Below are positions 44,680 through 63,690 of a stretch of DNA of 64,000 nucleotides, piece after piece. Origin of the DNA: Schmidtea polychroa (Eukaryota). The number at the start of each line of letters is the position of its first letter. Position 1 is the stretch's first letter. The translations under genes were made by a program, and so were the position numbers. The stretch covers positions 13,208,001 to 13,272,000 of the forward strand of contig CM097885.1 of NCBI GenBank assembly GCA_044892525.1, given 5' to 3'. The notes under the pieces are model-generated. The model ran no database searches and was not told the DNA's origin. It saw only the letters and a list, made by a program, of their open reading frames with translations.

Positions 44680-44925
44680 AGTAGTGAGGAATCTATGCAC
44701 CCCAGCACCCCCACCCTAAAAAAAAACAGCGCTATTGACCCATATTTTCCACATTTATGTGCTTTTTTACCCCATATTCTTCACTTTTTTTAACTTTTAA
44801 ACTTTGTCCCCTATTGCCATTAACCCTTAATTTCTTCCCTTAAAAGTAAAAAAGTTCGGAATAGATGTATTTATAGATTAGTAATTCCGAGAAAAGGTAA
44901 CGGGGTGCATAGATTCCTCACTACT
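44680..44925. repeat. Perfect 24-bp inverted repeat at the Polinton left end
   Basis: AGTAGTGAGGAATCTATGCACCCC (44680-44703) and its reverse complement (44902-44925). Confidence 0.92.
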
Positions 44926-45605
44926 TGGTCTTAAGGATTTAATGTTATAAGGATTTAATGTTATAAGAATATCAGATTACCTAATTCATAATGATCTAGG
45001 TCGCCTGATCACCTTAAGGTTTTGAAAGTTTTAAAAATAAAAAATTTTATGAAATAGTAAAACTGCTCTGAGAGGACAGTGGTTTTTTTTTTTTTTTTTT
45101 TCACTGTCCCCTCAACAGTTTTTTTTGATCCGGATCATTTTTTTTATTTATCAACCTCTTTCGTTTATCGAATCTCTTCCAATATACAAGCTGGCCAGAC
45201 TCATACATCAGAATCAATTCGATAATAGCAGCACACCTTATTATTCGCTACTCGCTCGAATACGATTTCATCGGCATTTTAAGTGTGCTGCTCGAAAGTA
45301 CAAATGAATTCGAAAGCGAATTCGAAAGAGGTCCGAAAACAACTGAGAAATAAATGTGCACATTACCGGGATCGATCCGGGGGTGTTCGAAAGACAGGTG
45401 GCGATAATTACCGGTTCGCCACCATCACCCGTTTCAATATTTTTTTTTTCATATTTATGTTTAAAAAATAAATAATTAATAAAAAAATAAAATAAAATAA
45501 AATAAATAAAATAAAATATACAAGTACTTTATAAATATAAGATACCCACACTATTTTCAATATTATTTTCAAATTTTTAATATTATTTTATGTTGAAAAA
45601 AAACT

Positions 45606-45678
45606 AACCTCAGATGTGATTTGAACCGCTATCCATTTGAACCACTGTGCCAGTCTATTCCCACTGCGCCATCAAGGT
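45606..45678 (-). ncRNA. tRNA-like Pol III unit 1
   Basis: A box TGGCGCAGTGG (45671-45661), B box GGTTCAAATC (45627-45618), partly pairing acceptor stem ACCTTGA/CTGAGGT, and a T8 run at 45603-45596. Confidence 0.6.
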
Positions 45679-45925
45679 TTGAATTTTTGTCATTTTTTAG
45701 ACTATAAATAATCGATTCAAGTTCTTTAACTCTTTCCTGTAATTGTTTCATTTTCTTCAATCTTATATCAGCAACATCTACAGCCTTCATATAAAAATGT
45801 CGATACTTTTCATTATCTACCATCAACTCTTTGATGTATTCTAATGGTTCTTCTTCTCTTCTTTTCATTCTCTTATGTTTAACTTCATTCAATTCATTTC
45901 TCATTCTTTCTTTTAACTCATCCAT
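45629..45925 (-). CDS. Small charged coiled-coil Polinton protein of unknown function, 98 aa
   Basis: ATG in the AAAATG context shared by other element genes; E/K/R-rich helical sequence. Its 3' end overlaps Pol III unit 1. Confidence 0.55.
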   Translation of the reverse strand: MDELKERMRNELNEVKHKRMKRREEEPLEYIKELMVDNEKYRHFYMKAVDVADIRLKKMKQLQERVKELESIIYSLKNDKNSNLDGAVGIDWHSGSNG

Positions 45926-46095
45926 TTTTATAAATATTTTTTTATTGGATATATTAATTTTTGGTAGCTTAAGTTAAAACGTTTTTGATCTTAAATTTCC
46001 AAGAGTTGCCGTTGACCAATCTCATTAAAAATTTGTACAAGTACTAAATCGAGTATGCTGATCAATATTTCGTTAAAAAAAAATTTGAAAAAAAA

Positions 46096-46168
46096 TGACC
46101 GAAATGGGATTTGAACCCATTGGTATTGGCAATGCAGTCGAGTGCTATTACCACTAAGCTATACTCAA
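46096..46168 (-). ncRNA. tRNA-Cys(GCA)-derived Pol III unit 2 (not a functional tRNA)
   Basis: TTGAGTA-TAGCTTAGTGGTAATAGC-A-CTCGACT-GCA-TTGCCAATACCA-ATGGG-TTCAAAT-CCCAT-TTCGGTCA followed by T8. D arm and T arm pair; acceptor and anticodon stems do not. Confidence 0.7.
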
Positions 46169-46328
46169 TATAAAATAAGTTGTTAATGTGTGACTATTTA
46201 TTGATGAAATTAATAATTAATTATTCATTTTCTCGACAACTACCACTCAGATCCATCTGAAAATTTAAATATATACTAAAATCAGTACGCTGAATCAGAT
46301 TCCGTTGAAAAAAATATCGATAAAAATT

Positions 46329-46401
46329 GACCAAAATCGAAAATTGAACCCGGTACTCCCGGTGATAAAATTGAAGCCTATTCCCACTCCGCTATAATGG
46401 C
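46329..46401 (-). ncRNA. tRNA-like Pol III unit 3
   Basis: A box TAGCGGAGTGG (46394-46384) and degenerate B box GGGTTCAATT. Ends ..GGTCA then T5. Its downstream flank is homologous to that of unit 2 (233-bp spacing). Confidence 0.55.
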
Positions 46402-46457
46402 TTACATAATATATTTAATTAATCCTATTTTGTGTGTGTAAATTTTAATATATAAAA

Positions 46458-47749
46458 ATGAATAACATAAATCTTAAAATTCAAGAAAAAAATAAATTAA
46501 ATCTTGATTATAATAAAGAATTTACTCATGAAATTCAAAAAATGATATTTTAAAAATCTCTCCAACTTCAGGATCTATTGCAAACTTAAATCGTAGGGGT
46601 GATATAGTTTTTCAATCTCTTCAAACATCAAACCCTATAGATATTTGTAATGCCAAATTATATTATAAAATCGAATTAGAAATTGAAGCAAACAAAGATA
46701 TAACCCTAGAAAATAATTTCTTTCCAAATTTATTCTCCAACATGAGATTAAAACTAGGATCATCAGAAATTGAAACTGTTTTGCATCCGGGAGTATATTC
46801 TACAATGTTAAATTTTATTTTGACTGGTTGTGATTATAAAAACGAATATGGTGAATTAACAGGTTGGATTCCTGATGTTAATAAAGGGGATTTAGATAAA
46901 GATGGTTTAGATGTAAACCATGGTTACCATAAAAGAGCTGAACTTTATAAATCTAAAAAATTTGAAGGTTATTTTGAATTAAAACACTTGTTTGGATTCC
47001 TTCAAAACTATAATCGTATACTTCATAATGTTTTTATAGAATTCATCTGTAATAGAGTAGAAGGTGATAAAAGATTGTTCTATGGAGCTGTAGATACAAA
47101 AGCTAAATTAAAATTATCAACACTTGAATTACATATACCTGAATGGACATTAAACCCACATTCTGAGATTAAACTCCTTGAAAGATTAAATTCCAACAAG
47201 TCTATAAATGTAAATTATTTAAATAGAATCTGTAGTGAATTTAGTATGACAGAGGGTTCAACATATTCTATAAAGGTAGCAAATTTAGCATACCGACCAA
47301 GATATATCTTGATTGGATTCAAAGAAGTAGATTCATCTTTCCAAAAAAATAACAACTTGTTTATTCAAAAGATTGGAGTTGATAATTTAAAAGCAATCCA
47401 AATTCAATTAAATAGTTCTTATTATCCAATAAATAGAATGGAATTTAATATTGAAAATAATGAAAACATATTCCCATATCTAAATTATATTGAAACATGT
47501 TATGATTTCAAAGTTGAACCGCAATTAAGTTTAGAAGATTTCAAAAATTTATATTCTATATTTTGTATAAATGTTTCAGACCAAGATGATCGCCTAGCCA
47601 TAAATAATGTTGATGTTACACTTCATGTAACAAAGGATTCTAATTTTAAAGCTAAAGTATATACATTAATATTAGAAGAAAAGAAAATAGAAATGAAATT
47701 ATATGGTGGAAAGATTTCAATAATCGAAAATGTTAGGGGAGATTCTTGA
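46458..47749 (+). CDS. Polinton major capsid protein (double jelly-roll, hexon-like), with a 1-nt frameshift in an A6 run at 46537-46542
   Basis: The frame of ORF 46742 is open from ~46541 (ISPTSGSIANLNRRGDIVF..LENNFFPNLFSNMRLKLGSSEIE..PG..STM). It also has LKHLFGF..Y, PRYILIGF, LNSSYYP and IFCINVS motifs of invertebrate Polinton MCPs. The likely start is ATG 46458 in another frame. Confidence 0.85.
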
Positions 47750-47778
47750 TATAATCCCTGATATTTTAACATTTTAAA

Positions 47779-49188
47779 ATGTCTCTAAATAAATATTGGA
47801 GATGTGAAAGTTGTAATTGTCAAGTTACAAGACATCATAAAGCAAGTCATTTAAAAACTAAAAAACATACAGGAGGTGATCTAATTCCACGAGCTGGAGG
47901 CGATTTGCAATCTTCAAAAACAACATCTTCAATATTAAAACCTTTTACTACAGAAAAATATCCAGGTGAAAGACATTTATTTAAACACAACTATACTGGA
48001 CCAGGAACACGTCTAGATATTAGATTAGATGAAAATAATAATCCCAAACAAGGAGAAGAACCAATAAATAGAATCGATCAAGCAGCTTTAAAACATGACA
48101 TTGCATACAATTCAACAAATCTTAGAGATAGACATGTTGCAGATGTGAATTTAATACATGATTTAAATAGTATCCAAAATCCATCAACCCTAGAAAAGAT
48201 TCAAAGAGCTCTAGTTAAATTAGCAATGAAAGGTAAGATTTTCATAGGCTTAGGACACAGTCCGATCACCATGGGTGCAAGACTTCCTAGGAAAGCAAAA
48301 GATGTTGCTTATAAAAAGATTATCGAACAAGCAGAGATTGAAAGATCCCTCGAGAGTACAGCCAAGACTAGTTTACAAACCCCAACAGAATCAGAAATAA
48401 AATATGCAAAGGAATTACACCATGAATTTAGAAAAAATAAAAAATATTTAAAAGTTCAAGTACATGAAAAAGATCAAACATGGTCTGCAGATTTAGTCTT
48501 TATGCCCAAATCATCAGACCCTGAAAAATATAAAATAATTTTAACTGTAATAGATTTATATACAAGATTTGCCTTTGCAAGATGTTTAGAAAATAAAACA
48601 GGATATTCTATTACAGAAGCATTTGAAAATATATTTGAAGAAAATCAAAGAATCCCAAAATATTTATGGTGTGATAAAGGAACAGAATTTTATAACAAAG
48701 TTTTTACAAAGTTTTTAAATGAAAATGATATTAAATTATATTCAACAGAAAACGAAGGAAAAGCAGTCGTAGTTGAAAGATTAAATAGAACATTAAAAAA
48801 TAAAATGTGGAAATATTTTACTGCTATTGGAAAACAAAAATGGAACAATGAATTGTTACAAAAGATTGTAAATGAATATAATAATGATGTACATAGTTCT
48901 ATAAAATTAACACCTTTAAATGCTTCCATGAAGCCTGAAACCATTAAAGTGGTAAATATTGAAAATGATGTTATTGAAAAACCAAAGTTTAAAATTGGTG
49001 ACCGAGTAAGAATATTTAAATATAAAAATAAATTTGAAAAAGGATTCACAGCAAAATGGACAAATGAAATTTTTATTATAAATAAAATACATTATACAAC
49101 TCCAATAACATATACCATCTTTGATTTAAATACTGAAAAAATATTAGGTAGATTTTATAATAATGAACTACAGAAAACAGATTTTTAA
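47779..49188 (+). CDS. Zinc finger - parvovirus-type phospholipase A2 (PLA2X) - retroviral-like integrase fusion, 469 aa
   Basis: CESCNC..HLKTKKH; NYTGPGT..PINRIDQAALKHDIAY..ADVNL (PLA2); WSADL..VIDLYTRF..WCDKGTEF..VERLNRTLK (DDE); KFKIGDRVRI..WTNEIF..FYNNELQ. Confidence 0.93.
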   Translation: MSLNKYWRCESCNCQVTRHHKASHLKTKKHTGGDLIPRAGGDLQSSKTTSSILKPFTTEKYPGERHLFKHNYTGPGTRLDIRLDENNNPKQGEEPINRIDQAALKHDIAYNSTNLRDRHVADVNLIHDLNSIQNPSTLEKIQRALVKLAMKGKIFIGLGHSPITMGARLPRKAKDVAYKKIIEQAEIERSLESTAKTSLQTPTESEIKYAKELHHEFRKNKKYLKVQVHEKDQTWSADLVFMPKSSDPEKYKIILTVIDLYTRFAFARCLENKTGYSITEAFENIFEENQRIPKYLWCDKGTEFYNKVFTKFLNENDIKLYSTENEGKAVVVERLNRTLKNKMWKYFTAIGKQKWNNELLQKIVNEYNNDVHSSIKLTPLNASMKPETIKVVNIENDVIEKPKFKIGDRVRIFKYKNKFEKGFTAKWTNEIFIINKIHYTTPITYTIFDLNTEKILGRFYNNELQKTDF

Positions 49189-49199
49189 GTCGACAAGGC

Positions 49200-50006
49200 C
49201 TAAAATAAACTTTTCCATATTTCAGCTTCTTCTCTATCCAAATAAATATAATTATATTTTTCTTTCCAATGATTATCAACAAACATATCAAACATATTCT
49301 TATCAGGTTCAACATTTGAAAATAAATCATTATAAATCATATTCTTATCACGGCGATCTAATTTAAAAAATATAAAACAATTGGAATTATTTCTTATTGA
49401 ATTTTTATCTAAAGCATAATATGTTTGAGATATATAAATAACATTACAATTATTATGTCGACCTCGTGTAAAGTAACTCTTTTGAATCTCTTGATTTTTC
49501 ATATTAACAACATCATCAAATATAACTAGATTCTTTTTATCTTTAGGAAGTAAATCACAATGTAAAACATCTTCAGGTTTATTAGAGAATAAAACTTGAA
49601 TTGCCTCCTGCCCTTCTTCACAAATATAATCATTTTTATTACTAATATCTGATTCTAAAATCTTTTCCTTATACCAATCAACCATATCACAAGGTTGAAA
49701 AACTTCTTCAGGACACCTATGTTGATTTTTAAAAATATCAATTATTGCTTTTTTAGTTAATTTATTTTCAAATCCTCATTTCAAAAGTTGTAATTCTGGT
49801 TGATTTATGGTTGTAGAATAAAAGATTAAATTATTATAATCTAAAAAATCATCTTCAAGTAACATTCTCAAAACAAGTACATTCTTTCCACATCCAGAAG
49901 AACCAACAATTAATAATCTAAAATTATCAGGAAATACTTTATTATTAAATTTACTCTTATGTCTATTTAAAATTGGTTTCCAAATTATTGGACTTCGTAC
50001 ATCCAT
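49200..50006 (-). pseudogene. Polinton packaging ATPase (A32/FtsK-like) with one in-frame TGA at 49778-49776
   Basis: MDVRSP..RLLIVGSSGCGKN (Walker A)..LLK*GFENK..LVIFDD (Walker B)..FTRGRHNN..ISQ..IRNN. The two track ORFs are in the same frame. Confidence 0.9.
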
Positions 50007-50021
50007 TTTGTTTATTATAAA

Positions 50022-50600
50022 ATGACAACTGAAGAATCTTTGCAAGAATTAATAAATTCAAATAAAAATAAATCAGTAGTAATTGATGGTAAAAAATATT
50101 TTATTGGAAAACATGTAAAAGAACAAGTTAGAGCGAAGCTCCACGAAGCTAAAGAAGGTGGCATTCTTCCATTAGCTGCTTTAATACCTGCAATCATTGC
50201 TGGTTTATCAGGTGCTGCTGGAATAGCTGGAGGAATTGCAACTACAGTTCAAAAAGCTAAAGAATCTCAAAAGACAGACCTAGAAAAAGAAAAACTACAA
50301 ACTGAAATCGATTCAATGAAGAAGGTAGGGCAAGCTAAAGGGGGAGTGTCCGTTGGAAAGGGTCTCTATCTTAATCCATATGAGGGGAGTCGGCAAAAGT
50401 CTCAGGGCAAAGGTCTCTATCTTGATCCTTATAAAGGTAGAGGTTTAAATGATTTTTTAAAAAATCAAATTTCTACATCTGAATCTTTATCTTCAAAAGA
50501 TAAAGAAGATTTAAAAAAAATATGTAAATCTTTAAAGAATGGATGCCTTTGTAAAACTAAAAATGGTAAAGGATTATACTTGAAGCCCTTCGAACTATGA
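50022..50600 (+). CDS. Adenovirus pX/core-protein-like Polinton structural protein, 192 aa
   Basis: GGILPLAALIPAIIAGLSGAAGIA resembles the adenoviral pX hydrophobic segment (GGILPLLIPLIAAAIGA). Three GKGLYLxP[YF] repeats. Confidence 0.7.
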   Translation: MTTEESLQELINSNKNKSVVIDGKKYFIGKHVKEQVRAKLHEAKEGGILPLAALIPAIIAGLSGAAGIAGGIATTVQKAKESQKTDLEKEKLQTEIDSMKKVGQAKGGVSVGKGLYLNPYEGSRQKSQGKGLYLDPYKGRGLNDFLKNQISTSESLSSKDKEDLKKICKSLKNGCLCKTKNGKGLYLKPFEL

Positions 50601-50622
50601 TACCATTTTTGATACCATTAAA

Positions 50623-51504
50623 ATGGTATATGAAGAAAGATTATCACTTTTAAAAAAATTACAATCAGAACAAGATAAATATAATAAAAAAGATACAACT
50701 CAACATGCTGAATCTATAATATTAAATGAGGTAATAACACAACAACAGGGGCCAACAATTAAAGCTATAAAAGAGTTGGAAGATTTCAATGAGCAAGCAA
50801 AATTTAAAGAGTTAGAAGATAAAAAACAAAAAATAAAAGAACTAGAGTGGCAGGATAAAGAAAAAGAATCCAGTGAAAACCATCCTGAAAGAAATCAAAG
50901 AAAACGCAGAAGAATTTCTAATGTGGAAGAAGAAGAAATGTTTTTAAAAACAAAACCTCTTAAAGTTGATCCTAAAATTAGAGATGATTTACCTCCTTCA
51001 ATTAGACCCACATTTAATACTAATACTGAAGGATATCAAATAATAACAATTAATAAACAAAACTTTACTTTATATTCAAATTCAGAAAATAAATCACGTA
51101 TTCATTCACAAAATGTTTATAATAATGAATATTTAGACTTTGAATTTACAGATGATTTTTATAGATTACTTTGTGGATATTCTTCAGATGATGTTGAAGA
51201 AATTAAAAAATATTTAAATTTAATAAAATTAATAAGAGCTAGTTCTAAAGCAAAATATATTCAAGATTTAAAGAATTATTTAAATAAAAATGAAAAGGGT
51301 TATGTTGTTACAGAGGGAGAGGGATTAATTAGTGAAGGTGGTAAACCAAATCCCATCAATCTTTTTATTGAATTAAGAAAACTATTAGCTGCAAGGAAAG
51401 CAGGACATAATAATTTAGATTCTGATATTTTAAAGATTTCTAAAGATTTGTTAAAACAAGGAATAATTTCAAAAGATAAATTTAATAAGTATACGAAGTT
51501 ATAA
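50623..51504 (+). CDS. Conserved uncharacterised Polinton protein, 293 aa
   Basis: C-terminal GEGL..P..L..ELRKLLAARKAGHNN..I..I..LLKQGII motif, recurrent in invertebrate Polintons. Basic RKRRR stretch. Confidence 0.7.
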   Translation: MVYEERLSLLKKLQSEQDKYNKKDTTQHAESIILNEVITQQQGPTIKAIKELEDFNEQAKFKELEDKKQKIKELEWQDKEKESSENHPERNQRKRRRISNVEEEEMFLKTKPLKVDPKIRDDLPPSIRPTFNTNTEGYQIITINKQNFTLYSNSENKSRIHSQNVYNNEYLDFEFTDDFYRLLCGYSSDDVEEIKKYLNLIKLIRASSKAKYIQDLKNYLNKNEKGYVVTEGEGLISEGGKPNPINLFIELRKLLAARKAGHNNLDSDILKISKDLLKQGIISKDKFNKYTKL

Positions 51505-51526
51505 ATACGAAGTTTTAAAATACAAA

Positions 51527-51991
51527 ATGACTCCTTCAATATTAGATTTTTTAAAAACATTTGGAATAAATGCAAAAACAAATTTTGATTTAAAAGATTA
51601 TGCAAATTATTTAAATTTAAAAATTAAAATATTAATGAATGATGAATTATCAAGTCTGGAGAGTCCCCTGAATATAATAATCAATTATCAAAATTCAAAT
51701 GAAAAAGGATCTCATTGGGTTTGTATATATAAGAAATCTATCTACTTTGATTCTTTTGGGATTAAACCTACTAAAGAAGTTGAAGATTATCTCTTGAGGG
51801 GTTCTCCGATTGATTCCCCAAATGGTTATACTTTTAACTCTTTACAAGTTCAACCTTTGAATACTAAAATATGTGGTATTTTAAGTTTATATGTTTTGTA
51901 TAGATTGAATAAGGGAGAGGGAAAGGGGCATACGCAGGATTTTGAATCTATAATTCAAGAAATTTATAATGATCTAGAATCTCTACTATAA
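51527..51991 (+). CDS. Adenain-like cysteine maturation protease, 154 aa
   Basis: IIN..GSHWVC..YFDSFG..QVQ..ICG, with catalytic H, D, C and oxyanion Q. Confidence 0.92.
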   Translation: MTPSILDFLKTFGINAKTNFDLKDYANYLNLKIKILMNDELSSLESPLNIIINYQNSNEKGSHWVCIYKKSIYFDSFGIKPTKEVEDYLLRGSPIDSPNGYTFNSLQVQPLNTKICGILSLYVLYRLNKGEGKGHTQDFESIIQEIYNDLESLL

Positions 51992-52034
51992 GGATTTTTA
52001 CTATAAGGATTTTTACTATAAGGATTTTTACTAT
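51986..52034. repeat. 3 x 15-bp tandem repeat ACTATAAGGATTTTT
   Basis: Directly visible between the protease and penton genes. Confidence 0.9.
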
Positions 52035-52054
52035 ATGAATTTACTACTAAAGAA

Positions 52055-52819
52055 ATGGAGCTTCACAACCCTCCGGAAGATAATTTAAAAAAAATGGTAA
52101 ACATAATGTCAGATAAATATTCAAGAACTTTATCTATAAATTCAAAAGAATCAGACTTTACTATAAACTTTCAAGATTCAATTAAATTAGATCAAAATTT
52201 AAATTATGAATTGGGGCTATTATGGTTTTGTGCTTATAATACTATTTTTAATATAACTAAAGATAATAATAAATTTACTATTCAAACTCGTGATGGGCAT
52301 AAACCAGAAATTATAACAATAGAACCTGGGGCATATGAGATAAAAGATTTAAATGATATACTTTCTAAAAAAACAAATGAAGGTATTAAAATTAAAATGG
52401 ATATACCAACTTCAAAATGTGTAATGACTTTGAAGAATATAAAAATTAGTTTTTTAGATAATTGTTTCTTTCACACAGTTTTCGGATTTAAACCTATGGA
52501 TATAACAATAAAAGAAGATAAAATAATAACATCAGAACATATTATAAAAATAATAAATACAAACACAATAAATATTCATTGCGATTGTATAACAGGTTCT
52601 TATAATAATGGTAAACAAACAAATGTTTTATATTCCTTTCCCTCAAACACAGTTCCTATGGGATATAAAATAGTTGAAAGAATGAATCCTCCAAATTATT
52701 TACCTTTATGTAGAAAATATATAATGGATATTAATTTTAAAATTCTTAATCAAGAAGGAGAATTGATTGATTTTAATGGAGAAGAGATTTCAATGTATTT
52801 ACATTTGAAACAGGTTTGA
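52055..52819 (+). CDS. Minor capsid protein (penton-like, single jelly-roll), 254 aa
   Basis: YNTIFNI..NNKF..IEPGAYEIKDLN..INIHCDCITGSYNNGK..LYSF..VPMGYKIVE..YLP..NQEGELIDFNGE, typical of Polinton pentons. Confidence 0.88.
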   Translation: MELHNPPEDNLKKMVNIMSDKYSRTLSINSKESDFTINFQDSIKLDQNLNYELGLLWFCAYNTIFNITKDNNKFTIQTRDGHKPEIITIEPGAYEIKDLNDILSKKTNEGIKIKMDIPTSKCVMTLKNIKISFLDNCFFHTVFGFKPMDITIKEDKIITSEHIIKIINTNTINIHCDCITGSYNNGKQTNVLYSFPSNTVPMGYKIVERMNPPNYLPLCRKYIMDINFKILNQEGELIDFNGEEISMYLHLKQV

Positions 52820-52843
52820 AGATTCATTTTAAATTATTAATAA

Positions 52844-53854
52844 ATGAGTTCTTATATTCCATGTAATAGAGGTGGTGGAACAATAAAAACAGGGTTTAAT
52901 ACAGAAGAAATATTAACTTTAACAGAAAATAAATATATTAATGAAAGAGGTGATTCAATGAAGGGTGATTTAATTTTAAATGGACACAAGATAAAAGAAT
53001 TATCTTTTCCAACTGATGAAGCTGATGCTGCTAATAAGAAATATGTAGATGGTGTTAAAAAATATACTGATTTAACAACAACAAGAATTGAAAGTTCATT
53101 AACAACAAAAATTGATTCAATGGAATCAAAGCTTAATAATATCGAACAACGATTTAATGATAAATTTGACAAGTTACAAAGTCTGTTAACTGAACAAGTT
53201 GTAAAGTTAAATACTGCTATATTAAATTCTAAAGATAAACAAATTATGAATACTAAATTTAATACAATATATAAAATAATAAATGAGATGATTACATCAT
53301 TTAATAAAAGAATTTCAAATTTAGAGTCTCATGGAACACACATTAACACCACACATAGTATTAGAAAAAGAGCTGCTGAATTAGAACAGAATAAAACATT
53401 ATTACCCCATACATATAAACATTTTATAGAACCAAGTTTAATAACAACAAACAGTAAAGAATGGGGTGTTTTTATGGTTGTAAAAATTATTGATCCTTAT
53501 TTCTTTTTGTTTGATGATGATAATGAAAGAATGAAATGGTTTGTGAAATGTGATTATAATAGTAAGCTTGAAAAGGGTGATGTTATAATGACTAGTTATG
53601 ATTTACCACACGGAGATTGGTATGTTAATACTCATTCACATGGACTACATAAAGTTAAAAGTAAGAATATTCATTTTTCTAGTTCACTTGTACAATATAT
53701 AGATTTAATATTTTATGAAAAAAAGGTTGATGTTGATGAAGTTCGTAAAGCATTGAGAGAATTGTATAAAGACATCCTCTCAACAAGAGTTTCTTTTGAT
53801 ATCCGAGTATTGGTGCCAGATGGTGCTCAGAAGAATAAAGTCTTATTTTTTTAA
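52844..53854 (+). CDS. Fiber-like protein, 336 aa
   Basis: Phage tail-fiber-type motif GDSMKGDLILNGHKIKEL..PTDEADAANKKYVD, followed by a long heptad coiled coil and a globular C-terminus. Confidence 0.7.
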   Translation: MSSYIPCNRGGGTIKTGFNTEEILTLTENKYINERGDSMKGDLILNGHKIKELSFPTDEADAANKKYVDGVKKYTDLTTTRIESSLTTKIDSMESKLNNIEQRFNDKFDKLQSLLTEQVVKLNTAILNSKDKQIMNTKFNTIYKIINEMITSFNKRISNLESHGTHINTTHSIRKRAAELEQNKTLLPHTYKHFIEPSLITTNSKEWGVFMVVKIIDPYFFLFDDDNERMKWFVKCDYNSKLEKGDVIMTSYDLPHGDWYVNTHSHGLHKVKSKNIHFSSSLVQYIDLIFYEKKVDVDEVRKALRELYKDILSTRVSFDIRVLVPDGAQKNKVLFF

Positions 53855-53862
53855 TTATTAAA

Positions 53863-54471
53863 ATGGAAGAAGTAAGAGAAGAAAAAATTTACCCAGAATT
53901 GAGATCATCAGGATATTATTCCGAAGGTCACAAAGGTTCCAAGGCCTCGGCTCCCACAGAACTTGAAATTATGAGAGTAAAAGAATTTAAATCAGAAACC
54001 TTACATTTACAAGATTTATTAAAGCATTATAAAAAAATTAAAAATAGATGGAATAAAGGGAATACAGTTTTAAAAGTTATAGGTTATTCTTTAGGATTTG
54101 CATCTGCAATATTAACAGTTATTTTACCCATAACTTTACCAGTTGTTACTCTTGCACCTGTAATACTTGGAAGTATTTCTGTGGCTGATGGTTTCTTAAC
54201 TGAAATAGTTTCATTATCTTATACTTCTAAAAAGAAAAGTTTATATAGAGAAGTTTGTTTATCAATAGAATTAGGAATCTCTAAATTATTTTTATTTCAA
54301 TTAAAAGCTTTAGAAGATGGAATCTTAACTGATGATGAAATAATGAAATCAAATCAAATAATTCAAGATATTAAAAATGAAGTTATAAAATTAAAAAGTG
54401 CAAATATTATAACTAATGAATATTCTAAAAAAATTAAACGAGACAAGTGGTTAAAGAATTCTTACTTATAA
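53863..54471 (+). CDS. Polinton membrane protein with a central hydrophobic hairpin, 202 aa
   Basis: IYPEL..SAP N-terminus, basic helix, two hydrophobic segments, then the ALEDGILTDDEI motif. Possibly the family labelled gasdermin-like in adintoviruses (not verified). Confidence 0.65.
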   Translation: MEEVREEKIYPELRSSGYYSEGHKGSKASAPTELEIMRVKEFKSETLHLQDLLKHYKKIKNRWNKGNTVLKVIGYSLGFASAILTVILPITLPVVTLAPVILGSISVADGFLTEIVSLSYTSKKKSLYREVCLSIELGISKLFLFQLKALEDGILTDDEIMKSNQIIQDIKNEVIKLKSANIITNEYSKKIKRDKWLKNSYL

Positions 54472-54565
54472 AATGGGTGTATTTTTAAAAAAGTAGATCA
54501 GGTTGCTATAGTTGCTTAAATTAATTGTCGACATTTTATTATTAAAAAATTAAATATCGTTGGTT

Positions 54566-55120
54566 TCAGTTATGGTTGAAAGCCAACCTATGAATCATTA
54601 ATTTATGATCTTTAAATTCTTTATCACTTAGACCTTTTATATATTCAGAATCAGTATTAAAATATTTAAGTTCTAAACATATAGGATTAAAAACTTGAGA
54701 ATATAAAGGTTTCTCGATTTCTCTCTCGGGATAAATAATTTCAACATTATAAATATCAAGATCAGTAATCTTTGTATCATATAACGTATTCAACTTTTCT
54801 AGATTTTTTATTATAGGGATTAAATTATTTCCAATAGGCAGAGTTGTCTTTAAATCACTTAGTATGAATCTCTTATCATCATAATTTGATAATGATACTT
54901 TTTGAGATTCTATCAAGTGAATATCATGGTTTTCACTTTTAAGTTGATGTATTTCATCAATTTTATCTTTATGATTTGGGTTTAATGTATCTATATAATC
55001 TTGATGAGAAAGATTCTTTGCAACCACTCTCTGTATTCCTTTACATCTGTTATCCTTTAAATTAGTAATATTTTTTATAATTTCAAAAATGTTATTTTCT
55101 TGATTTTTAGTTTCCATCAT
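54566..55120 (-). CDS. Stand-alone paralogue of the pPolB C-terminal (thumb plus tail) region, 184 aa
   Basis: Own ATG and intact frame. KGIQ..LKSE.H.I.L..YDDKRFILSDLKTTLPIGN.LIPIIKNL..KPLY.QV..LKYFNTD.EYI.GL..HKLM is collinear with the last ~165 aa of the adjacent pPolB. Confidence 0.88.
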   Translation of the reverse strand: MMETKNQENNIFEIIKNITNLKDNRCKGIQRVVAKNLSHQDYIDTLNPNHKDKIDEIHQLKSENHDIHLIESQKVSLSNYDDKRFILSDLKTTLPIGNNLIPIIKNLEKLNTLYDTKITDLDIYNVEIIYPEREIEKPLYSQVFNPICLELKYFNTDSEYIKGLSDKEFKDHKLMIHRLAFNHN

Positions 55121-55144
55121 TTTATAGTGTTAAAATTCTAATTC

Positions 55145-56612
55145 TTAGACCAGTCGTAATTGATTTATAATTATTTCTGCAGTAATGCTTTTTAACATTA
55201 ATTTATGTGATTTATAGTCTTCTGGTGTTAGTCCTTGGATATATTCAGGATCAGTATTAAAATATTTAAGTTCTATAGGTTTTATATTTTGAACTTGATT
55301 ATATAAAGGTTTAGGAATTAATATTTCAGGATATTGGATTTCTACTTTAGCAAGTTGAAGGTCTGTAATCTCTAGGTTATAAATTTCATTTATTTTATCA
55401 AGATTTTTTATTATAGGGATTAAATCATTTCCAATAGGTAATGTTGTCTTCAAGTCAGAAAGTATAAATCTTTTATCATCATAATTTGTTATAGCAATCT
55501 TGTTACACTCTTCAAGATATATATTATGTTTCTCTGATTTAAGATGATGGGTTTTAGCAATTTTATTTTTATAATTTATATTTAATGAATCTTTATACTC
55601 TTGATGTGTGAAGGTTTTTGACACTGATTTTTGAATTCCTTTACTTTTATTTTCTTTATAGCTTTTCGGGTTTTCAGGGAATGAAGGATATTCAAATGTG
55701 TGATCTATTTCAACAGATCCTTCTCCCTCCCCTATTATAAATTTTATTGTATGCTCTTTCATAATTGGTTTGTCTTTCATTTCAAGAGAATATTGTTTAG
55801 GTCTAATAAACACTCCTCCAGTTATTGGAGTATTTGGTTTTTCATCTTTAAAAGTAAACAACTCTCCAGAATTGTTTATTAATTTATTTAAGGTTGGATC
55901 TTCACGTATTTCTTTTTTTAAATCTTTGCTATATCCTTTTAAAAACATACTATCAGTGTCCATTGCATGCATGGATATTCGATCTCCAAAATGTGGTACT
56001 AGAACATCATAGTAGGCTTCATACATTTGAAGCTTTGAAAGTTCTAAAATTGAAAACCCTATAAAGATTGGTTTATTATAAATTTTTACAGAGTTTTTAA
56101 TCTCTATGGCTATAAGGTTACTAGAGAATATCTCGGCATTTTTAAATGTGGGCTTTCCAATTATCCGGTTGTACCTATTAAGGTCTTTGGATGTATTGGT
56201 CAAAAGCTCTACACGTGTGTACTTGTCTATATTCTCCATGGTCTTTCCAAAGACCGCATTGTTCAGGAGTTTGTAAATCATATCAAGAAATGCATTTCCA
56301 GCTCTCTTTGCTGCATTTCTTTTCAAAATATTTCCCTCTATGAATTTTTTCATAAAAGGAGCTTGTCGAAATTTAATAATGGAATGTACTTTTTTTAAAA
56401 CCATTCCATGGGAGAGATAAAACTGAAGGAGTCTATAATGACAAAGGTAATCAGTTTTATCGGTCTGATCGCATAAAAGTTTTATACATGGTGTTCTATT
56501 CTGAGCAATCTGCCAGTCTGAAAGTTCTTCAGTCGAGATCTTTCTTCTTACTGGAGCAAATGGAAAGAATCTTGTCCTGGATTTTATTTCATTGGGATAT
56601 TCAAGATAGCAT
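55145..56612 (-). pseudogene. Protein-primed family B DNA polymerase, 5'-truncated
   Basis: The frame is open from ECYLEYP..FPFAP (~56612) through KLLNNAVFGK (motif B), AMDTDS (motif C), FKDE, PKQY, KGI and DDKR. Motif A, exonuclease and terminal-protein regions are missing. Confidence 0.92.
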
Positions 56613-57449
56613 TCTTTTTTATGGGCATAATAATTTGCTTGCAGTTTTTCAGTGCCCAGTGATGTTTAATCGTCAAAAATATTGACTGTAACAACAAAAA
56701 ATTCACAAAGATGGCATCTTTATGTGATTGAATAAAAAAATGTCACTCATCTGGTTTCACCCTTATTTATAAGCTATAAAATGTATTTTCTCTACCCTAG
56801 ACTGAATTTAGGTGAGGGGATCTGACACCAAATAAGAACCCCATAAATTAATAAAACAATAATAAATGTTACCCGGGCCCATTTACATGAAAATTATTTA
56901 AATCCATATCATAACATTAACTGTTAGAATTTTTTAGAAATCGTTTTATGTCACGAAAAATGAGAGTGTATAATGCTCTTTATTGAGTCGTTTTATTTTT
57001 GGACACAGTAATATTCACTTGTAGATTTATGCAAAAAACGATTCTCATTCCTTGAGATTGGTTATGGAATACATTGACTCAAAATTAGATATCTTGGCTC
57101 GTACAACATTTGTAACAATGACAATCATCATGCTCATTGGTAGAAATTAATAATTATTCGCGGCAGTGCATAGAAACTAGAAATAGGAAAAATTTCATAA
57201 AATAGCATAAGGAATAGAATAAGAATTAAAACTATAAGAAAAACGATAAGAAACACTAGAATATTCTATGAAAATGGCAAAATCCGACATGGGGCCGAAA
57301 CAAACGAATACTAAATAAAAATATAAGAATTTAGAAAATTTATTCGCCAAAAATAATATAAAAATAACGTAATAATTAAAAACAATATAAATTATATATT
57401 ATAACGATTAAAACTAGCATAAAATATTCTAGAAAATGACCATATCAAT

Positions 57450-58301
57450 CAGCGCCGGTTCGAGATAATTATACGCCCCAGGCGAAAATTATAAAAAGCG
57501 CCCTATTTTAAAAATTAGGTACAAAAATTATGATAAAATAAAAAAGTTTAACAAAAAACAATCCATTTATTACTTTATTTCATTTTTTTCGATCTACTAT
57601 GACGGAAGATAGGTTGAATAATTTGGCCATTATTTCAATTGAAAATAATGTTGTAGCAAACCTAAATTTGGAGGCAGCAATAGAAAAATTTGCAGACATG
57701 AAAGCCAGGAAAAAATCATTCTTATAAATTCTGTTTTTTTATATATATGTCACATATATAAAAAAACAGAATTTATAAGAATGATTTTTTCCTGGCTTTC
57801 ATGTCTGCAAATTTTTCTATTGCTGCCTCCAAATTTAGGTTTGCTACAACATTATTTTCAATTGAAATAATGGCCAAATTATTCAACCTATCTTCCGTCA
57901 TAGTAGATCGCAAATACGTTTTTATTAGTTTTAATTTACTAAAACTTCTTTCACCACTCGCAACACTAACAGGAATTGTTACAAGAATTGTTATAGCTGT
58001 TAATTTAACTCGCACATCAGTTTTTGTAATACATACATATATTTTTTTTTATTTCAATTTTCAATACATATCAGAATTTCTCAGAATTGGAAATTCGTAT
58101 ATTTTGCATGTACTTTTTTTTTGTTTTTTCTTATTTTCAATTTTTTTTAAAACGGTTGGTTTCATAGATAAATTTCAAAATATAAAGTTTTGGAGGCTTA
58201 TTTTATAATTTACTTTGATTGTTTATAATAAATTTTGGCGCCCTCTAAAAAAAGGTGCCCTAGGCTATGGCCTAGGTCGCCTGGCCCTTGGGCTGGGCCT
58301 G
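57450..58301. mobile_element. Non-autonomous hAT element containing a fold-back of the transposase C-terminus
   Basis: CAGCGCCGG / CTGGGCCTG ends with perfect 8-bp TSD ATATCAAT. Minus-strand PVSVASGERSFSKLKLIKTYLRSTM..RLNNLAIISIE. ~160-bp inverted duplication at 57590-57910. Confidence 0.88.
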
Positions 58302-58363
58302 ATATCAATCATGGTAGTGAATTTAATAAAAATTAAATAAAATATCAAAATTATAAAATAAAA

Positions 58364-59411
58364 GGCGACGGTTTACTATACGCATCCCAAAAAAATTACA
58401 ATAAATAAATCAATTAAATAATCATTTATTTTATGGCAGAAATTGCGTACAAAAACATATCTAATAAATGATTTTCTGTTGTATTTTGCCTTGATAACCA
58501 CATTTTAAATCAATAAAAGCCGTTTTTTCGGTAAATGACATTCCTCTTCTACTTCTTAAATCAGTCTTTAAATTACCCCATAATCCTTCAATAGTGTTGG
58601 TATGAACACCATTTTCTTGGTTAACATATTCCAATTTGTGATTAACAGCATGGTGTGTGTAATTTAATCCAGGTAAATTTCCGAGATTGAAGGTTTCGGT
58701 ATAATATCCACACCACATATCGGAGTGAATAATAGAGCCTGGTCTTATGAATCTAGTGATTAAAGGAACAAGTGTTTCACGATCTCTTTTTTCGACAACT
58801 CTTGCAAACCATTTTTTTGAAACTCTGTCAATACCGCCCATCATCTAAACTTCCATGTATCTCCGACCTCTGTTATATTTGGTATTTTTGGAGATAAGAG
58901 TTTCGTCGATTTCAACGATTACTCATTCTCCCCCAATCATGAGATCATCGTAATTTAAATTTAGCAAAGAGAAAAGAAATTATTCCAATCTGCCAAAGTT
59001 TTATTTGATAACTTTAACATTATTAAAATAAAATTTTATTGCTAGGCACCCTAATACTCAAAAATAAGTCAAAAGAAGCAATGTAGAAAGTGGCAGCTTT
59101 GATTTCTCAAAAAAAGAATCTTTCCTTACACTGCAGGAAGAACATTTTATTGGACATCTATAAGTATATCCATCTGTAATATTATTTCCTTTTATTGAAG
59201 TCATTTGTTGACCACAAAAACAATTAAAATTACTTTTTAAAAGTTTTTTCTCTGAAAGTATTCATTACATTCCAATTTATCAGAGCTAATTTGAAAAATT
59301 ATGTATAAGTCAGGATAATTTTGCATTTTAAGGTTTAAAATAAAATGATTATTTAATTGATTTATTTATTAAATAATTATTTTTTTGGGATGCGTATAGT
59401 AAACCGTCGCC
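58364..59411 (-). mobile_element. Merlin (ISXO2/IS1016-like) DNA transposon, full length, transposase disrupted
   Basis: TIR GGCGACGGTTTACTATACGCATCCCAAAAAAA (similarity extends to ~65 bp) with 8-bp TSD AAATAAAA. IVEIDET, GSIIHSDMW..Y and VNH..GVHTNTIEGLW motifs, with stops and frameshifts upstream. Confidence 0.93.
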
Positions 59412-63114: not shown

Positions 63115-63690
63115 TTAAAGACCCCCAATAAACCATATCGTCATCAACTACTACCTAAATATACTAAATTAGCTTATAGTAATATACATCTAACTTATAT
63201 TATATTTAAAAATATAAATTGTAAATTTCTTATGAATGACCCCCTCAAAATTATACCATCTTTATCCATCACCTAAGTATACTAAATCAGCTTATCTTAA
63301 TATATATTTAACTTATATTATGTTTAGAAAATGATAAATTATAAATGTTCTTAAATGACCCCCCTCCGAATTATACATTCATTACCCATTGCACAAATAT
63401 CCTAAATTAACTTATTTTAATATATATTTAGCTTGTAGTATGTTAAAAATGATAATTTATAAATATTCATAAATGACCCCCTCCGAATTACACATTCATT
63501 ACCCATTGCACAAATATCCTAAATTAACTTATTTTAATATATATTTAGCTTGTAGTATGTTAAAAATGATAATTTATAAATATTCATAAATGACCCCCCT
63601 GCATAAATTAACTTATTTTAATATAGATTTAACTTGCAGTATATTTAGAATGATTACTTATAAATTTTCATAAATGACCCCTTCGGTTCA
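63115..63690. repeat. ~118-bp tandem repeat array (about 5 degenerate units)
   Basis: Recurring AAATGACCCCC..CCTAAATTAACTTATTTTAATATATATTTAGCTTG units. 63353-63470 and 63471-63587 are nearly identical. Confidence 0.85.

Follow-up and report, generated by a model that had tools for sequence, protein, structure and literature searches.

Candidate RNA polymerase III cassettes of apparent tRNA-Cys descent in the terminal arm of a Schmidtea polychroa Polinton

Polintons, or Mavericks, are regarded as integrated animal viruses with kinship to adenoviruses, and next to nothing has, to our knowledge, been learned of how they turn on their genes or avoid silencing. A 64,000-nt stretch of the Schmidtea polychroa genome (contig CM097885.1, positions 13,208,001 to 13,272,000; hereafter, the window) contains a Polinton with three tRNA-like units in one of its terminal arms. 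An earlier reading of these letters, made without database searches and referred to here as the sequence-only reading, proposed that the units are RNA polymerase III (Pol III) genes for small noncoding RNAs comparable to adenovirus VA RNAs, or else binding sites for TFIIIC. What are these units, and does the element keep them for their RNA, for their DNA, or for no reason at all? The features on which the answer depends are given below in window coordinates.

44680 to 45022, no strand assigned: left terminal inverted repeat (TIR) of the Polinton, recognized as an inverted repeat of the other end of a full 15.2-kb copy
45368 to 45441, minus strand: a fourth, weaker tRNA-like promoter geometry, read from the letters
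45596 to 45679, minus strand: unit 1 with its T8 terminator, recognized by its box pattern and paralogue similarity
45629 to 45925, minus strand: conserved 98-aa coiled-coil-like open reading frame (ORF) between unit 2 and unit 1, recognized as an ORF and by comparison of copies
46075 to 46168, minus strand: unit 2, tRNA-Cys derived, with a double terminator (T8, then T9), matching the Rfam tRNA model at 26.7 bits (E = 0.0087)
46308 to 46401, minus strand: unit 3 with a double terminator (T5 here and T7 in most copies, then T7)
46440 to 46479, plus strand: core start region of the capsid gene, delimited by a copy of the sequence at the right end of one subfamily
46458 to 47749, plus strand: double-jelly-roll major capsid gene (PF21738, E = 3e-23)

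The carrier of the units is a Polinton, in agreement with the sequence-only reading; it is young and present in roughly 2,000 copies in this animal genome. Both hallmarks of Polintons/Mavericks are found, namely, the core genes and TIRs with a 6-bp target duplication. A full copy measures 15.2 kb and carries at both ends TIRs of 343 to 344 nt that are 98% identical in inverted orientation, which a more sensitive search extends to 377 nt at 96%, and the target duplication, TTTCCA, lies on both sides of the full copy on C3. Pfam matches identify a protein-primed family-B polymerase (PF03175, E = 7e-9), an rve integrase (PF00665, E = 6e-12), and the capsid protein, together with a weak match to the packaging ATPase that falls just below the cut-off (PF04665, 21.7 bits versus 22.8). 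The copy in the window ends at 56615 and is without its right end. A palindrome is located at 57586 to 57914, where an RNA-family search of 56600 to 58400 returns only generic hairpin matches, and no match to SRP RNA (a 7SL-like piece) was found in 44800 to 47000 or in 56600 to 58400.

All three units lie on the minus strand where they had been placed earlier, at 45606 to 45679, 46096 to 46168, and 46329 to 46401. They are 73 to 74 nt long, and unit 1 is better drawn as 45679 to 45606, which gives it a 7-bp acceptor-like stem that includes two G-T pairs. The A box has the consensus TRGCNNAGTGG, and the B box follows it by 30 to 60 nt with the consensus GGTTCGANNCC. The A boxes of unit 1 (TGGCGCAGTGG, 45671 to 45661), unit 2 (TAGCTTAGTGG, 46161 to 46151), and unit 3 (TAGCGGAGTGG, 46394 to 46384) fit this consensus at every specified position and are followed in each unit by [G/T]AATAG. 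The B box (GGTTCAA...) starts exactly 44 nt from the start of the A box in all three units; compared with the consensus, it is without the last C in unit 1 and without the final CC in unit 3. Unit 1, which overlaps the final 17 codons and the stop codon of the 98-aa ORF, contains two A boxes (45671 to 45661 and 45652 to 45642) and two B-box cores (45643 to 45637 and 45627 to 45621).

A T-run begins 0 to 2 nt past each unit. Unit 1 is followed by T8 (45603 to 45596), unit 2 by T8 (46095 to 46088) and a second run of T9 (46083 to 46075), and unit 3 by T5 (46326 to 46322) and a second run of T7 (46314 to 46308). Runs of seven or more T start at 0.08% of strand positions in the window. Across genomic copies, the terminator of unit 1 is T8 in 16 of 17 and T9 in the other, that of unit 2 is at least T8 in all 21, and that of unit 3 is T7 in 16 of 20 other copies, the T5 being peculiar to the copy in the window. 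The composite pattern AGTGGNAATAGN{20,40}GGTTCAA matches three times in the window and never in 100 dinucleotide shuffles, while GGTTCAA by itself is not enriched (14 occurrences versus 9.6 expected). The A boxes, the B boxes at tRNA spacing, and the T8, T8, and T5 runs claimed by the sequence-only reading are all present, and with the A box, B box, canonical spacing, and strong terminator each of units 1 to 3 reads as the full grammar of a type 2 Pol III gene.

The fourth unit is a weaker case. Its A-like box (45421 to 45411) and B-like box (45378 to 45368) are 43 nt apart, an 8-bp hairpin replaces the D arm, no T-run adjoins it, and it has no Rfam match at E values up to 10. Together with an A-rich tail it spans 45441 to 45120. 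The 32-mer at its head occurs 2,372 times in the genome with at most two mismatches, often as inverted pairs 13 to 14 kb apart, which places it in both arms of many elements.

Unit 2 indicates where the units came from. Its segment from 46133 to 46164 is identical to the 5′ half of the host tRNA-Cys(GCA) at 28 of 32 positions (E = 5.7e-6), its 11-nt B box/T loop is identical to that of the host gene at 11 of 11, and its A box differs from the host A box at 1 of 11; the flanks of the two are not homologous. With a relaxed E value, unit 2 is the only unit to match the Rfam tRNA model RF00005 (26.7 bits versus a cut-off of 29, E = 0.0087), and units 1 and 3 remain unmatched in Rfam at E values up to 10. 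The alignment displays an anticodon loop CUGCAUU, with anticodon GCA, and a perfect T arm. A subfamily variant of unit 2 that carries a 9-nt insertion scores 32.4 bits, and its acceptor, D, and anticodon stems contain mismatches. The tRNA-Cys-like 5′ half, GCA anticodon, and perfect T arm described earlier are thereby substantiated, and unit 2 descends from the host tRNA-Cys gene. Host tRNA arrays were rejected as a source, since the spacers of the tRNA-Arg, tRNA-Lys, and tRNA-Cys tandem arrays have no homology to the Polinton arm beyond short AT-rich words.

The cloverleaf stems are largely lost, also as described earlier. ARAGORN detects no tRNA in the window, while the same tool detects the host tRNA-Arg, tRNA-Lys, and tRNA-Cys, and Rfam at its gathering score likewise finds none in the window; none of units 1 to 3 is a working tRNA. 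Fold z-scores relative to shuffled sequences are −0.83 for unit 1, −2.83 for unit 2, and +0.16 for unit 3, with unit 2 folding better than 199 of 200 shuffles and units 1 and 3 no better than shuffled sequence.

Units 1 to 3 are paralogues and sit in a repeated module of about 235 to 245 bp in the terminal arm of the Polinton. The similarity between units 2 and 3 continues for about 100 nt beyond the T-run, which indicates that these two arose by segmental duplication and not by separate insertions. The sequence-only reading held that boxes and terminators are conserved while the interiors diverge, and across the three paralogues this is the case. Box columns are invariant in all three units at 16 of 22 positions versus 13 of 52 for the other unit columns (Fisher p = 2e-4), a test that is partly circular because both the units and their alignment are anchored on the boxes. 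The corresponding figures are 45 of 126 for flank columns and 7 of 33 for interior columns, which are nearly unalignable; units 2 and 3 agree at 69 of 120 columns in the flanks and at 16 of 33 in the interior. If unit 1 were an independent capture of another tRNA, the shared boxes would need no selection.

Conservation of the boxes is not supported among genomic copies of the element. Across 21 copies, variable sites number 7 of 66 in the boxes, 19 of 154 in the rest of the units, and 130 of 1,200 in the spacers, versus 6 of 246 in the 98-aa ORF and 7 of 336 at capsid codon position 2. The boxes differ from the 98-aa ORF (p = 0.008) and not from the spacer-like capsid codon position 3 (p = 0.64). 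The units and their boxes therefore vary like neutral DNA among these copies, while the 98-aa ORF and the second codon positions of the capsid gene are clearly constrained, and the alignment of copies gives no sign of recent constraint on the boxes. Variants common to at least 2 of the 21 copies occur at 1 of 66 box sites and 61 of 1,200 spacer sites, a comparison with no statistical power (p = 0.37); the sole box variant is G/A at a position where the A-box consensus permits either purine. Genome-wide, both boxes are exact in 1,128 of 1,280 copies that have the exact 33-nt interior of unit 2. In C1:0-55.2 Mb, 89 of 99 interior-exact copies keep the boxes and 89 of 98 box-intact copies keep the interior, both ratios being taken from the first 100 matches. 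The genome-wide ratio from the box-intact side is unusable because the count of 2,820 box-intact units is inflated by amplified variant arrays. The boxes are thus not retained better than the unit 2 interior genome-wide.

The capsid gene starts at 46458, not 46742. Capsid homologues are 410 to 448 aa long, and one of 431 aa that is 96% identical aligns over residues 1 to 28 with 46458 to 46541 and over residues 28 to 430 with 46538 to 47746 in another frame, which locates a frameshift in the window's copy within 46535 to 46541. The units do lie between the left terminus and the capsid gene, as the sequence-only reading stated, and 57 nt separate the capsid ATG from the 5′ end of unit 3, which lies on the other strand, so that the two are divergent and unit 3 spans about −57 to −130. 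The 98-aa ORF, for which no Pfam family was found, begins 171 nt downstream of the end of unit 2. One subfamily has at its right end a 90% identical copy of the capsid core start region, with an outward-facing copy of unit 1 about 40 nt away. A full 15.9-kb copy has units 1 to 3 in its left arm and two copies of unit 1 in its right arm, all facing outward, with the start-region copy about 40 nt from the inner right-hand unit. In a deletion variant, as at this right end, some unit always adjoins the core start region.

The units are integral to this Polinton and are not free short interspersed elements (SINEs), as comparison of copies makes clear. All 40 genomic matches scored span the entire 825-nt region at 98 to 100%. 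In C1:0-41.9 Mb, 63 of 76 exact unit 2 matches have the capsid 30-mer 850 to 880 bp away on the opposite strand, and the match lists place the fourth-unit head beside 10 of the 11 unpaired matches that could be checked. The count of this head is close to that of the capsid gene (1,970). The units are nevertheless lineage specific, and a wider distribution among Polintons is not upheld: two divergent Polinton lineages of this genome (80 kb) lack them, as do 14 metagenomic relatives, only one of which has a long sequence (5 kb) upstream of the capsid gene, so that Polintons in general can dispense with them. These 14 loci were found using an alignment of 24 capsid homologues; the capsid protein had no relative in viral contigs or, with a single query, in metagenome contigs. 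At the polymerase end of one full copy, whose inverted repeats are short, there is no unit. The box pattern occurs in at least 120 stretches of viral contigs, and the one stretch among those listed with three matches is a coding repeat unrelated to the Polinton.

We favor, at a probability of about 0.45, the reading that the units are complete type 2 Pol III promoter-terminator cassettes that are no longer tRNAs and whose role is probably exerted through the DNA or the act of transcription instead of through a structured RNA. They would be decayed, duplicated descendants of one captured tRNA-Cys gene. TFIIIC would bind the boxes and recruit TFIIIB and Pol III, and the resulting RNAs would be short (about 75 to 85 nt), poorly structured, oligo-U ended, and directed outward to the end of the element. 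What the element appears to retain is the cassette, not the RNA sequence, and the likely benefit would then be an open or bounded patch of chromatin. Its back-to-back neighbors would be Pol II starts: that of the capsid gene, 57 nt away, that of the 98-aa ORF, and, in one subfamily, that of the polymerase leader. A role in cis is favored because the RNA sequence seems unconstrained, given the few invariant interior columns among paralogues and the variable sites outside the boxes among copies. TFIIIC binding, Pol III transcription, and any benefit are predictions from sequence. The second option of the sequence-only reading, that the boxes serve as TFIIIC sites, is partly supported in that the new anatomy agrees more closely with it than with a decoy RNA.

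It is possible, although we consider it doubtful, that the units are a neutral relic in which a captured tRNA-Cys gene was duplicated as a segment of about 240 bp by unequal recombination and the copies are decaying. The units would ride along because they share a short, indispensable arm with the capsid gene promoter and that of the 98-aa ORF. Such a history would account for units and boxes that are as variable as spacers in the 21 copies, boxes retained no better than the interior genome-wide, lost cloverleaf stems, and other Polinton lineages without units. In a satellite copy of the unit 2 module that is 81% identical, the unit is kept no better than its flanks (54 of 73 versus 171 of 213 positions) and the T arm is broken. 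Module number is also unstable, as either unit 2 or unit 3 is fused to unit 1 in DNA contigs, with skips of 490 and 814 nt, and expanded arrays of units with 243-bp spacing exist in the genome. However, for all the divergence of flanks and interiors between units 2 and 3, every A-box position that the consensus specifies is intact in each of the three units, as are the B-box core, the 44-nt spacing, and the T-runs. Uniform decay should not spare an 8-nt T-run and 16 box positions in three lineages, and the only box variant found in at least 2 of 21 copies is a purine change that the consensus permits.

A role for the RNAs themselves, as functional viral noncoding RNAs acting as decoys or small-RNA precursors in the manner of VA RNA or gammaherpesvirus 68, was the first proposal of the sequence-only reading and now appears improbable. 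The complete Pol III grammar with strong terminators is consistent with it, as is the fold of unit 2, and a tRNA-like cluster at the left genome end resembles the layout that a passage in PMC4337559 describes for gammaherpesvirus 68. Against this, units 1 and 3 have no stable fold, the interiors differ wholly between units and drift among copies, there is no space for a hairpin ahead of the terminator, and Rfam matches are to tRNA only.

We regard it as very unlikely that the modules of about 240 bp serve the capsid gene and the 98-aa ORF as upstream Pol II enhancer or promoter repeats, with boxes that bind some other factor, in which case the tRNA likeness would be only historical. The position of unit 3 just ahead of the capsid ATG, that of unit 2 upstream of the 98-aa ORF, and the constant presence of a unit beside the core start region would suit such repeats, and in unit 2, unit 3, and the satellite copy the sequence past the T-run is conserved as well as the units are. 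Yet the conserved positions coincide with the A box, the B box, the tRNA spacing, and the Pol III terminator and equal the elements of the host tRNA-Cys, and another factor is not expected to preserve exactly the elements of Pol III. Insertion of tRNA-derived SINEs into the Polinton is scarcely credible: the tRNA-like heads and the nearby fourth unit with its A-rich tail recall such elements, but each unit runs directly into a T-run with no body, tail, or target duplication of its own, units 2 and 3 share homologous flanks, and the occurrences are not dispersed independently but tied to the Polinton, with the fourth-unit head about as numerous as the capsid gene and in inverted pairs at element ends.

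No run recorded as RNA is listed for 45550 to 46450. Assembled contigs of three runs only guessed to be RNA, in which starts, ends, strand, and levels are unreadable, include pieces over 45118 to 45424 and 45643 to 45955 (from the 98-aa ORF into unit 1) and a piece of 45553 to 45699 (unit 1 with its T-run) joined to 46451 to 46534. Among the pieces listed, none lies over unit 2, and unit 3 is reached only at its edges. A broader interpretation, which we advance tentatively and think unlikely, is that an animal Polinton (adintovirus-like) maintains its own tRNA-Cys-derived Pol III genes, whose activity or RNAs may aid expression or escape from silencing. If true, Polintons/Mavericks would gain their first described set of Pol III genes, one that parallels the tRNA-like genes of gammaherpesvirus 68; among the matches listed, a full-text literature search found no description of Pol III units in these elements. 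About 2,000 young copies with such cassettes beside the capsid and polymerase starts allow a direct test of whether a DNA transposon-virus recruits the machinery of tRNA transcription. They also illustrate how a tRNA gene, once captured, can be pared down to its promoter and terminator and give rise to satellites. Should the units prove silent, they would be just a well-documented tRNA pseudogene array in a transposon.

Several known systems resemble the Polinton units in part. Adenoviruses, which are related to Polintons, make VA RNAs of about 160 nt that are highly structured and are transcribed by Pol III from genes with A and B boxes inside them. The internal boxes and the viral kinship are shared, but the analogy drawn by the sequence-only reading is not supported, as the Polinton units are less than half as long, two of the three have no stable fold, and the Rfam match is to tRNA with none of VA type. 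tDNAs, extra-TFIIIC sites, and TFIIIC-bound SINEs act on chromatin and on neighboring Pol II genes. The proposed box-dependent binding of TFIIIC beside Pol II promoters would resemble these, and an action of TFIIIC on Pol II genes from Pol III-type repeats has a precedent (PMC7014570); those sites are host loci, whereas the Polinton units lie in the arms of a mobile element and their TFIIIC binding is predicted. Like tRNA-derived SINEs, the units have a tRNA-derived head with a Pol III promoter and exist in thousands of copies, but their copy number is that of the carrier Polinton and its derived satellites.

Relatives of Polintons also carry tRNA-derived Pol III genes. An excerpt of PMC12220804 counts 558 tRNAs in a set of Polinton-like virus and virophage genomes, and a figure legend in PMC8502044 has tRNA flags. 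The tRNA genes of Polinton-like viruses, virophages, and mid-size linear double-stranded DNA (dsDNA) viruses are detectable, foldable, and thought to serve translation, whereas the units of this animal Polinton fail ARAGORN, mostly fail Rfam, and have lost their stems. Murine gammaherpesvirus 68, according to a passage in PMC4337559, has eight tRNA-like, nonaminoacylated Pol III genes in 6 kb at its left end, known as TMERs or vtRNAs. These carry pre-miRNA hairpins between the tRNA-like part and the terminator, for which the T-run that begins at once after each Polinton unit leaves no room, and their transcription and function are proven, whereas the Polinton units are known from sequence and belong to an integrated element of about 2,000 copies. 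With the TMERs (PMC4337559, same passage), the Polinton shares a set of several noncanonical units with A and B boxes, clustered near the left end of a linear dsDNA genome, that are not usable as tRNAs.

Three tRNA-like units on the minus strand, each with an A box, a B box and a T-run, lie between the left inverted repeat and the capsid gene of a Polinton, as the sequence-only reading had placed them:

44680-45022, left inverted repeat of the Polinton
45679-45606, minus strand, unit 1, 73-74 nt, tRNA-like, T8 after it
46168-46096, minus strand, unit 2, 73-74 nt, tRNA-like, T8 after it
46401-46329, minus strand, unit 3, 73-74 nt, tRNA-like, T5 after it

The A-box consensus of type 2 Pol III promoters is TRGCNNAGTGG, and the 11-nt A box of all three units satisfies every specified position. 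Each A box runs into the same unusual extension, [G/T]AATAG, and the B-box core GGTTCAA follows at exactly 44 nt from the first base of the A box; the three also have in common a D-loop-like 8-mer, AGTGGNAA, that leads into TAG, and a tail TTTTTTT-CAAC. The T-runs begin 0-2 nt past the unit ends, with a second run a few bases beyond the first after unit 2 (T9) and unit 3 (T7); runs of at least seven T start at 0.08% of strand positions in the window. The composite pattern AGTGGNAATAGN{20,40}GGTTCAA has 3 matches in the 64-kb window and none in 100 dinucleotide shuffles, which bears out the proposal of three box-plus-terminator units. GGTTCAA by itself is not enriched in the window.

The carrier of the units is a Polinton. 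It shares 44680-56615 at 97.9% with a full copy elsewhere in the genome, after which the window copy breaks off. The full copy is about 15.2 kb long, bounded by terminal inverted repeats of 343-377 bp and flanked by a 6-bp duplication (TTTCCA). Pfam recognizes four Polinton genes in the window, encoding a double-jelly-roll capsid, an rve integrase, an A32-type ATPase (a weak match), and a protein-primed family-B polymerase fragment. The integrase (47779-49188, plus strand) is N-terminally fused to a parvovirus-capsid-type PLA2-like domain (PF08398, E 1.5e-8), and part of the polymerase C-terminal region (54566-56404, minus strand) occurs twice (300 nt at 74%). A hairpin at the inner edge of the left inverted repeat (45057-45124) has a loop of 19 T, or of A on the opposite strand, and draws only weak generic miRNA-model matches in Rfam. 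Elsewhere, the window holds a near-perfect 164-nt palindrome (57586-57914; arms 99% complementary and 1 nt apart) with generic hairpin matches only and no SRP-like match in Rfam. It also holds a short element (58364-59411) between 56-nt inverted repeats of 80% complementarity, whose 127-aa coding fragment contains a DDE transposase domain of the IS1595/ISXO2 type (E 1e-13), and a tandem repeat (63122-63677) of five copies of about 117 nt, two of them 99% alike, adjoining a long (AT)n tract.

Judged by sequence models, units 1 to 3 are not tRNAs, and unit 2 is derived from one. ARAGORN found no tRNA in the window, a meaningful negative because tRNA-Arg, tRNA-Lys, and tRNA-Cys were detected in short stretches of the same genome, and Rfam returned nothing at the gathering score. 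At a relaxed E-value, only unit 2 matched the tRNA model (26.7 bits versus a cutoff of 29); the alignment includes a perfect T arm and an anticodon loop reading CUGCAUU. Eight of 21 copies carry a subfamily form of unit 2 in which 9 nt are inserted before the A box; this form reaches 32.4 bits, yet its stems are mismatched. Single-strand folding is unremarkable for unit 1 (z = -0.83) and unit 3 (z = +0.16); unit 2 folds better (z = -2.83), owing mostly to its T arm. The 5' half of unit 2 is identical to host tRNA-Cys(GCA) at 28 of 32 positions, as are 10 of 11 A-box and all 11 B-box positions; the flanks of the two are unrelated. The tRNA-Cys likeness claimed for unit 2, GCA anticodon and T arm included, thus stands; none of the three units is a working tRNA. 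Host tRNA-Cys(GCA) genes form a tandem array with a 281-bp period (982 pattern matches), one of several very large host arrays that also include Lys-TTT (424 bp) and Arg-TCG (278 bp):

C1:269250644 onward, host tRNA tandem array
C4:76658343 onward, host tRNA tandem array
contigs C474, C333, and C140, host tRNA tandem arrays

Residues 1-28 of a 96%-identical capsid homologue map to 46458-46541, and the capsid gene therefore starts at 46458 and spans 46458-47749 (plus strand); the longest ORF begins 284 nt downstream of that start. Homologues of the capsid measure 410-448 aa; the window copy has a frame shift within 46535-46541. The 1,008-nt stretch 46742-47749 has no internal stop in 19 of 21 copies (17 of the 19 at full length and 1 other 2 nt short), and the other two have 1 and 27 stops. 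The capsid ATG is 57 nt from the 5' end of unit 3 (46401), on the opposite strand. A strongly conserved, coiled-coil-like 98-aa ORF between units 2 and 1 (45925-45629, minus strand), which matches no Pfam family, probably represents a genuine small gene of the element; it begins 171 nt downstream of the end of unit 2, and its final 17 codons overlap unit 1. In a full 15.9-kb family member, the left arm carries units 1-3 and the right arm two unit-1 copies, all pointing outward. Also on the right, a 90%-identical copy of the capsid start region (window 46440-46479) sits about 40 nt from the inner unit and is directed towards the polymerase gene. The 15.9-kb copy has a 99%-identical capsid, a polymerase C-terminus only 60% identical, and much longer inverted repeats, which suggests module exchange between subfamilies. 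The full copy of the short-repeat subfamily has no unit at the polymerase end. A weaker tRNA-like promoter layout, the fourth unit (45441-45368, minus strand, body to about 45120), spaces its A-like and B-like boxes by 43 nt, replaces the D arm with an 8-bp hairpin, and is A-rich at the end (45145-45119). Its head, a 32-mer probe, occurs 2,372 times in the genome, often as inverted pairs 13-14 kb apart, indicating that the fourth unit belongs to both arms of many elements. In contigs from runs guessed to be RNA, the listed pieces cover 45118-45424 at this unit.

Units 1-3 are, as their alignment indicates, paralogues of one ancestor, and units 2 and 3 have about 100 nt of common flank (69/120 columns). 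Across the three, 16 of 22 box columns are invariant versus 13 of 52 other unit columns (Fisher p = 2e-4), with 7/33 between the boxes and 45/126 in the flank. The T-run of unit 1 is T8 in 16 of 17 copies and T9 in the other, that of unit 2 is T8 or more in 21/21, and that of unit 3 is T7 in 16 of 20, T5-A-T in 2 (the window copy among them), and interrupted in 2. This persistence of boxes and T-runs is the main argument that promoter and terminator, and not the RNA, have been maintained, an argument weakened by circularity because the boxes both drew attention to the units and anchored their alignment. Nor would selection be required to explain the shared boxes had unit 1 arisen from a different tRNA, captured independently.

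The most economical account is that a Polinton would have captured a tRNA-Cys gene once, that the gene would have been duplicated along with flank, and that the copies would have lost all but the Pol III promoter and terminator. Because the boxes of unit 2 match those of host tRNA-Cys at canonical spacing, we infer by type 2 promoter rules that TFIIIC would bind the units and Pol III would transcribe them wherever chromatin permits. We tentatively favor, at a probability of roughly 0.45, stripped tRNA-Cys Pol III cassettes. Since the RNA sequence is free to change, any benefit would act at the level of DNA or transcription, beside Pol II starts, and is not placed in a decoy RNA.

Variable-site fractions were compared among the 21 copies.

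Variable sites among 21 copies
Spacers, 130/1200
Units outside boxes, 19/154
Boxes, 7/66
T-runs, 2/29
98-aa ORF, 6/246
Capsid codon position 1, 20/336
Capsid codon position 2, 7/336
Capsid codon position 3, 29/336

The capsid codon pattern shows that copy differences do record selection. The units resemble the spacers (p = 0.64) and differ from the 98-aa ORF (p = 7e-5; boxes alone versus ORF, p = 0.008), which argues against present constraint on them. Of the seven box variants, six occur in one copy each and break the consensus, and the sole shared one is a G/A change at the purine position. Genome-wide, 1,280 copies match the 33-nt unit-2 interior exactly, and 1,128 of them also have both boxes exact. 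Over the first 55 Mb of C1, boxes are exact in 89/99 interior-intact copies and the interior is kept in 89/98 box-intact copies, so the boxes are kept no better than the interior; in an 81%-identical satellite copy, the unit (54/73 conserved) fares no better than its flanks (171/213). The claim that boxes and terminators were kept while interiors diverged holds across paralogues; among copies, the boxes vary as the interiors do. A neutral relic would fit this spacer-like variation, set against the box and T-run persistence across paralogues, and we regard it as somewhat less likely than the stripped cassettes. Functional RNAs of the VA kind, as the sequence-only reading proposed, or of the TMER kind (tRNA-like Pol III genes of murine gammaherpesvirus 68) have viral precedent and are improbable given that the RNA sequence is free to change. 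Regulatory repeats bound by another factor would also keep short motifs, and we give them little credence beside the canonical box spacing.

The units are integral to the element in other copies: 40/40 scored genomic matches to the 825-nt region run end to end at 98-100%. The box pattern has 4,505 matches genome-wide versus 0 for a reversed control. On C1:0-41.9 Mb, an exact capsid 30-mer lies 850-880 bp from 63 of 76 exact unit-2 matches, on the opposite strand, and the fourth-unit head adjoins 10 of the 11 matches without a capsid partner that fell within range of the head matches listed (compared by eye). SINE insertions, free units with their own duplications, are not the pattern found and are highly improbable. 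The surplus of the unit-2 30-mer over the capsid 30-mer (3,249 versus 1,970 occurrences, both at up to 2 mismatches) is explained by amplified derivatives, which include arrays of unit-2-type modules at 243-bp spacing and a 1,245-bp tandem repeat, 290 bp of which correspond to unit 2 at 81% identity:

C1:145889-167106, unit-2-derived satellite
C1:12975-13272, unit-2-derived satellite

Unit 1 is joined to unit 2 or to unit 3 in contigs from a run that is probably DNA (490 and 814 nt skipped), implying that module number changes by unequal recombination.

In 80 kb from two divergent Polinton lineages in this genome (about 35% polymerase and 37% integrase protein identity), the A-plus-B-box pattern has no match; the same search gives 3 matches in the window and 0 in reversed sequence. 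With E up to 1, Rfam matches no tRNA in either lineage, in a search that did pick up unit 2 in a copy of the window's own family. The units are also missing from 14 metagenomic loci (27.2 kb) that encode capsid relatives, and at the one with long upstream sequence the capsid is 49% identical and a different gene lies 75 nt before it. Absence from the divergent lineages and metagenomic relatives points to the units as a lineage-specific acquisition.

A full-text literature search on Polintons/Mavericks found no description of tRNA-like Pol III units. tRNA genes occur in Polinton-like viruses and virophages, according to two papers (PMC12220804; PMC8502044). Murine gammaherpesvirus 68, as described in PMC4337559, carries tRNA-like Pol III genes clustered at the left end of its genome, an arrangement tellingly similar to that of the units.
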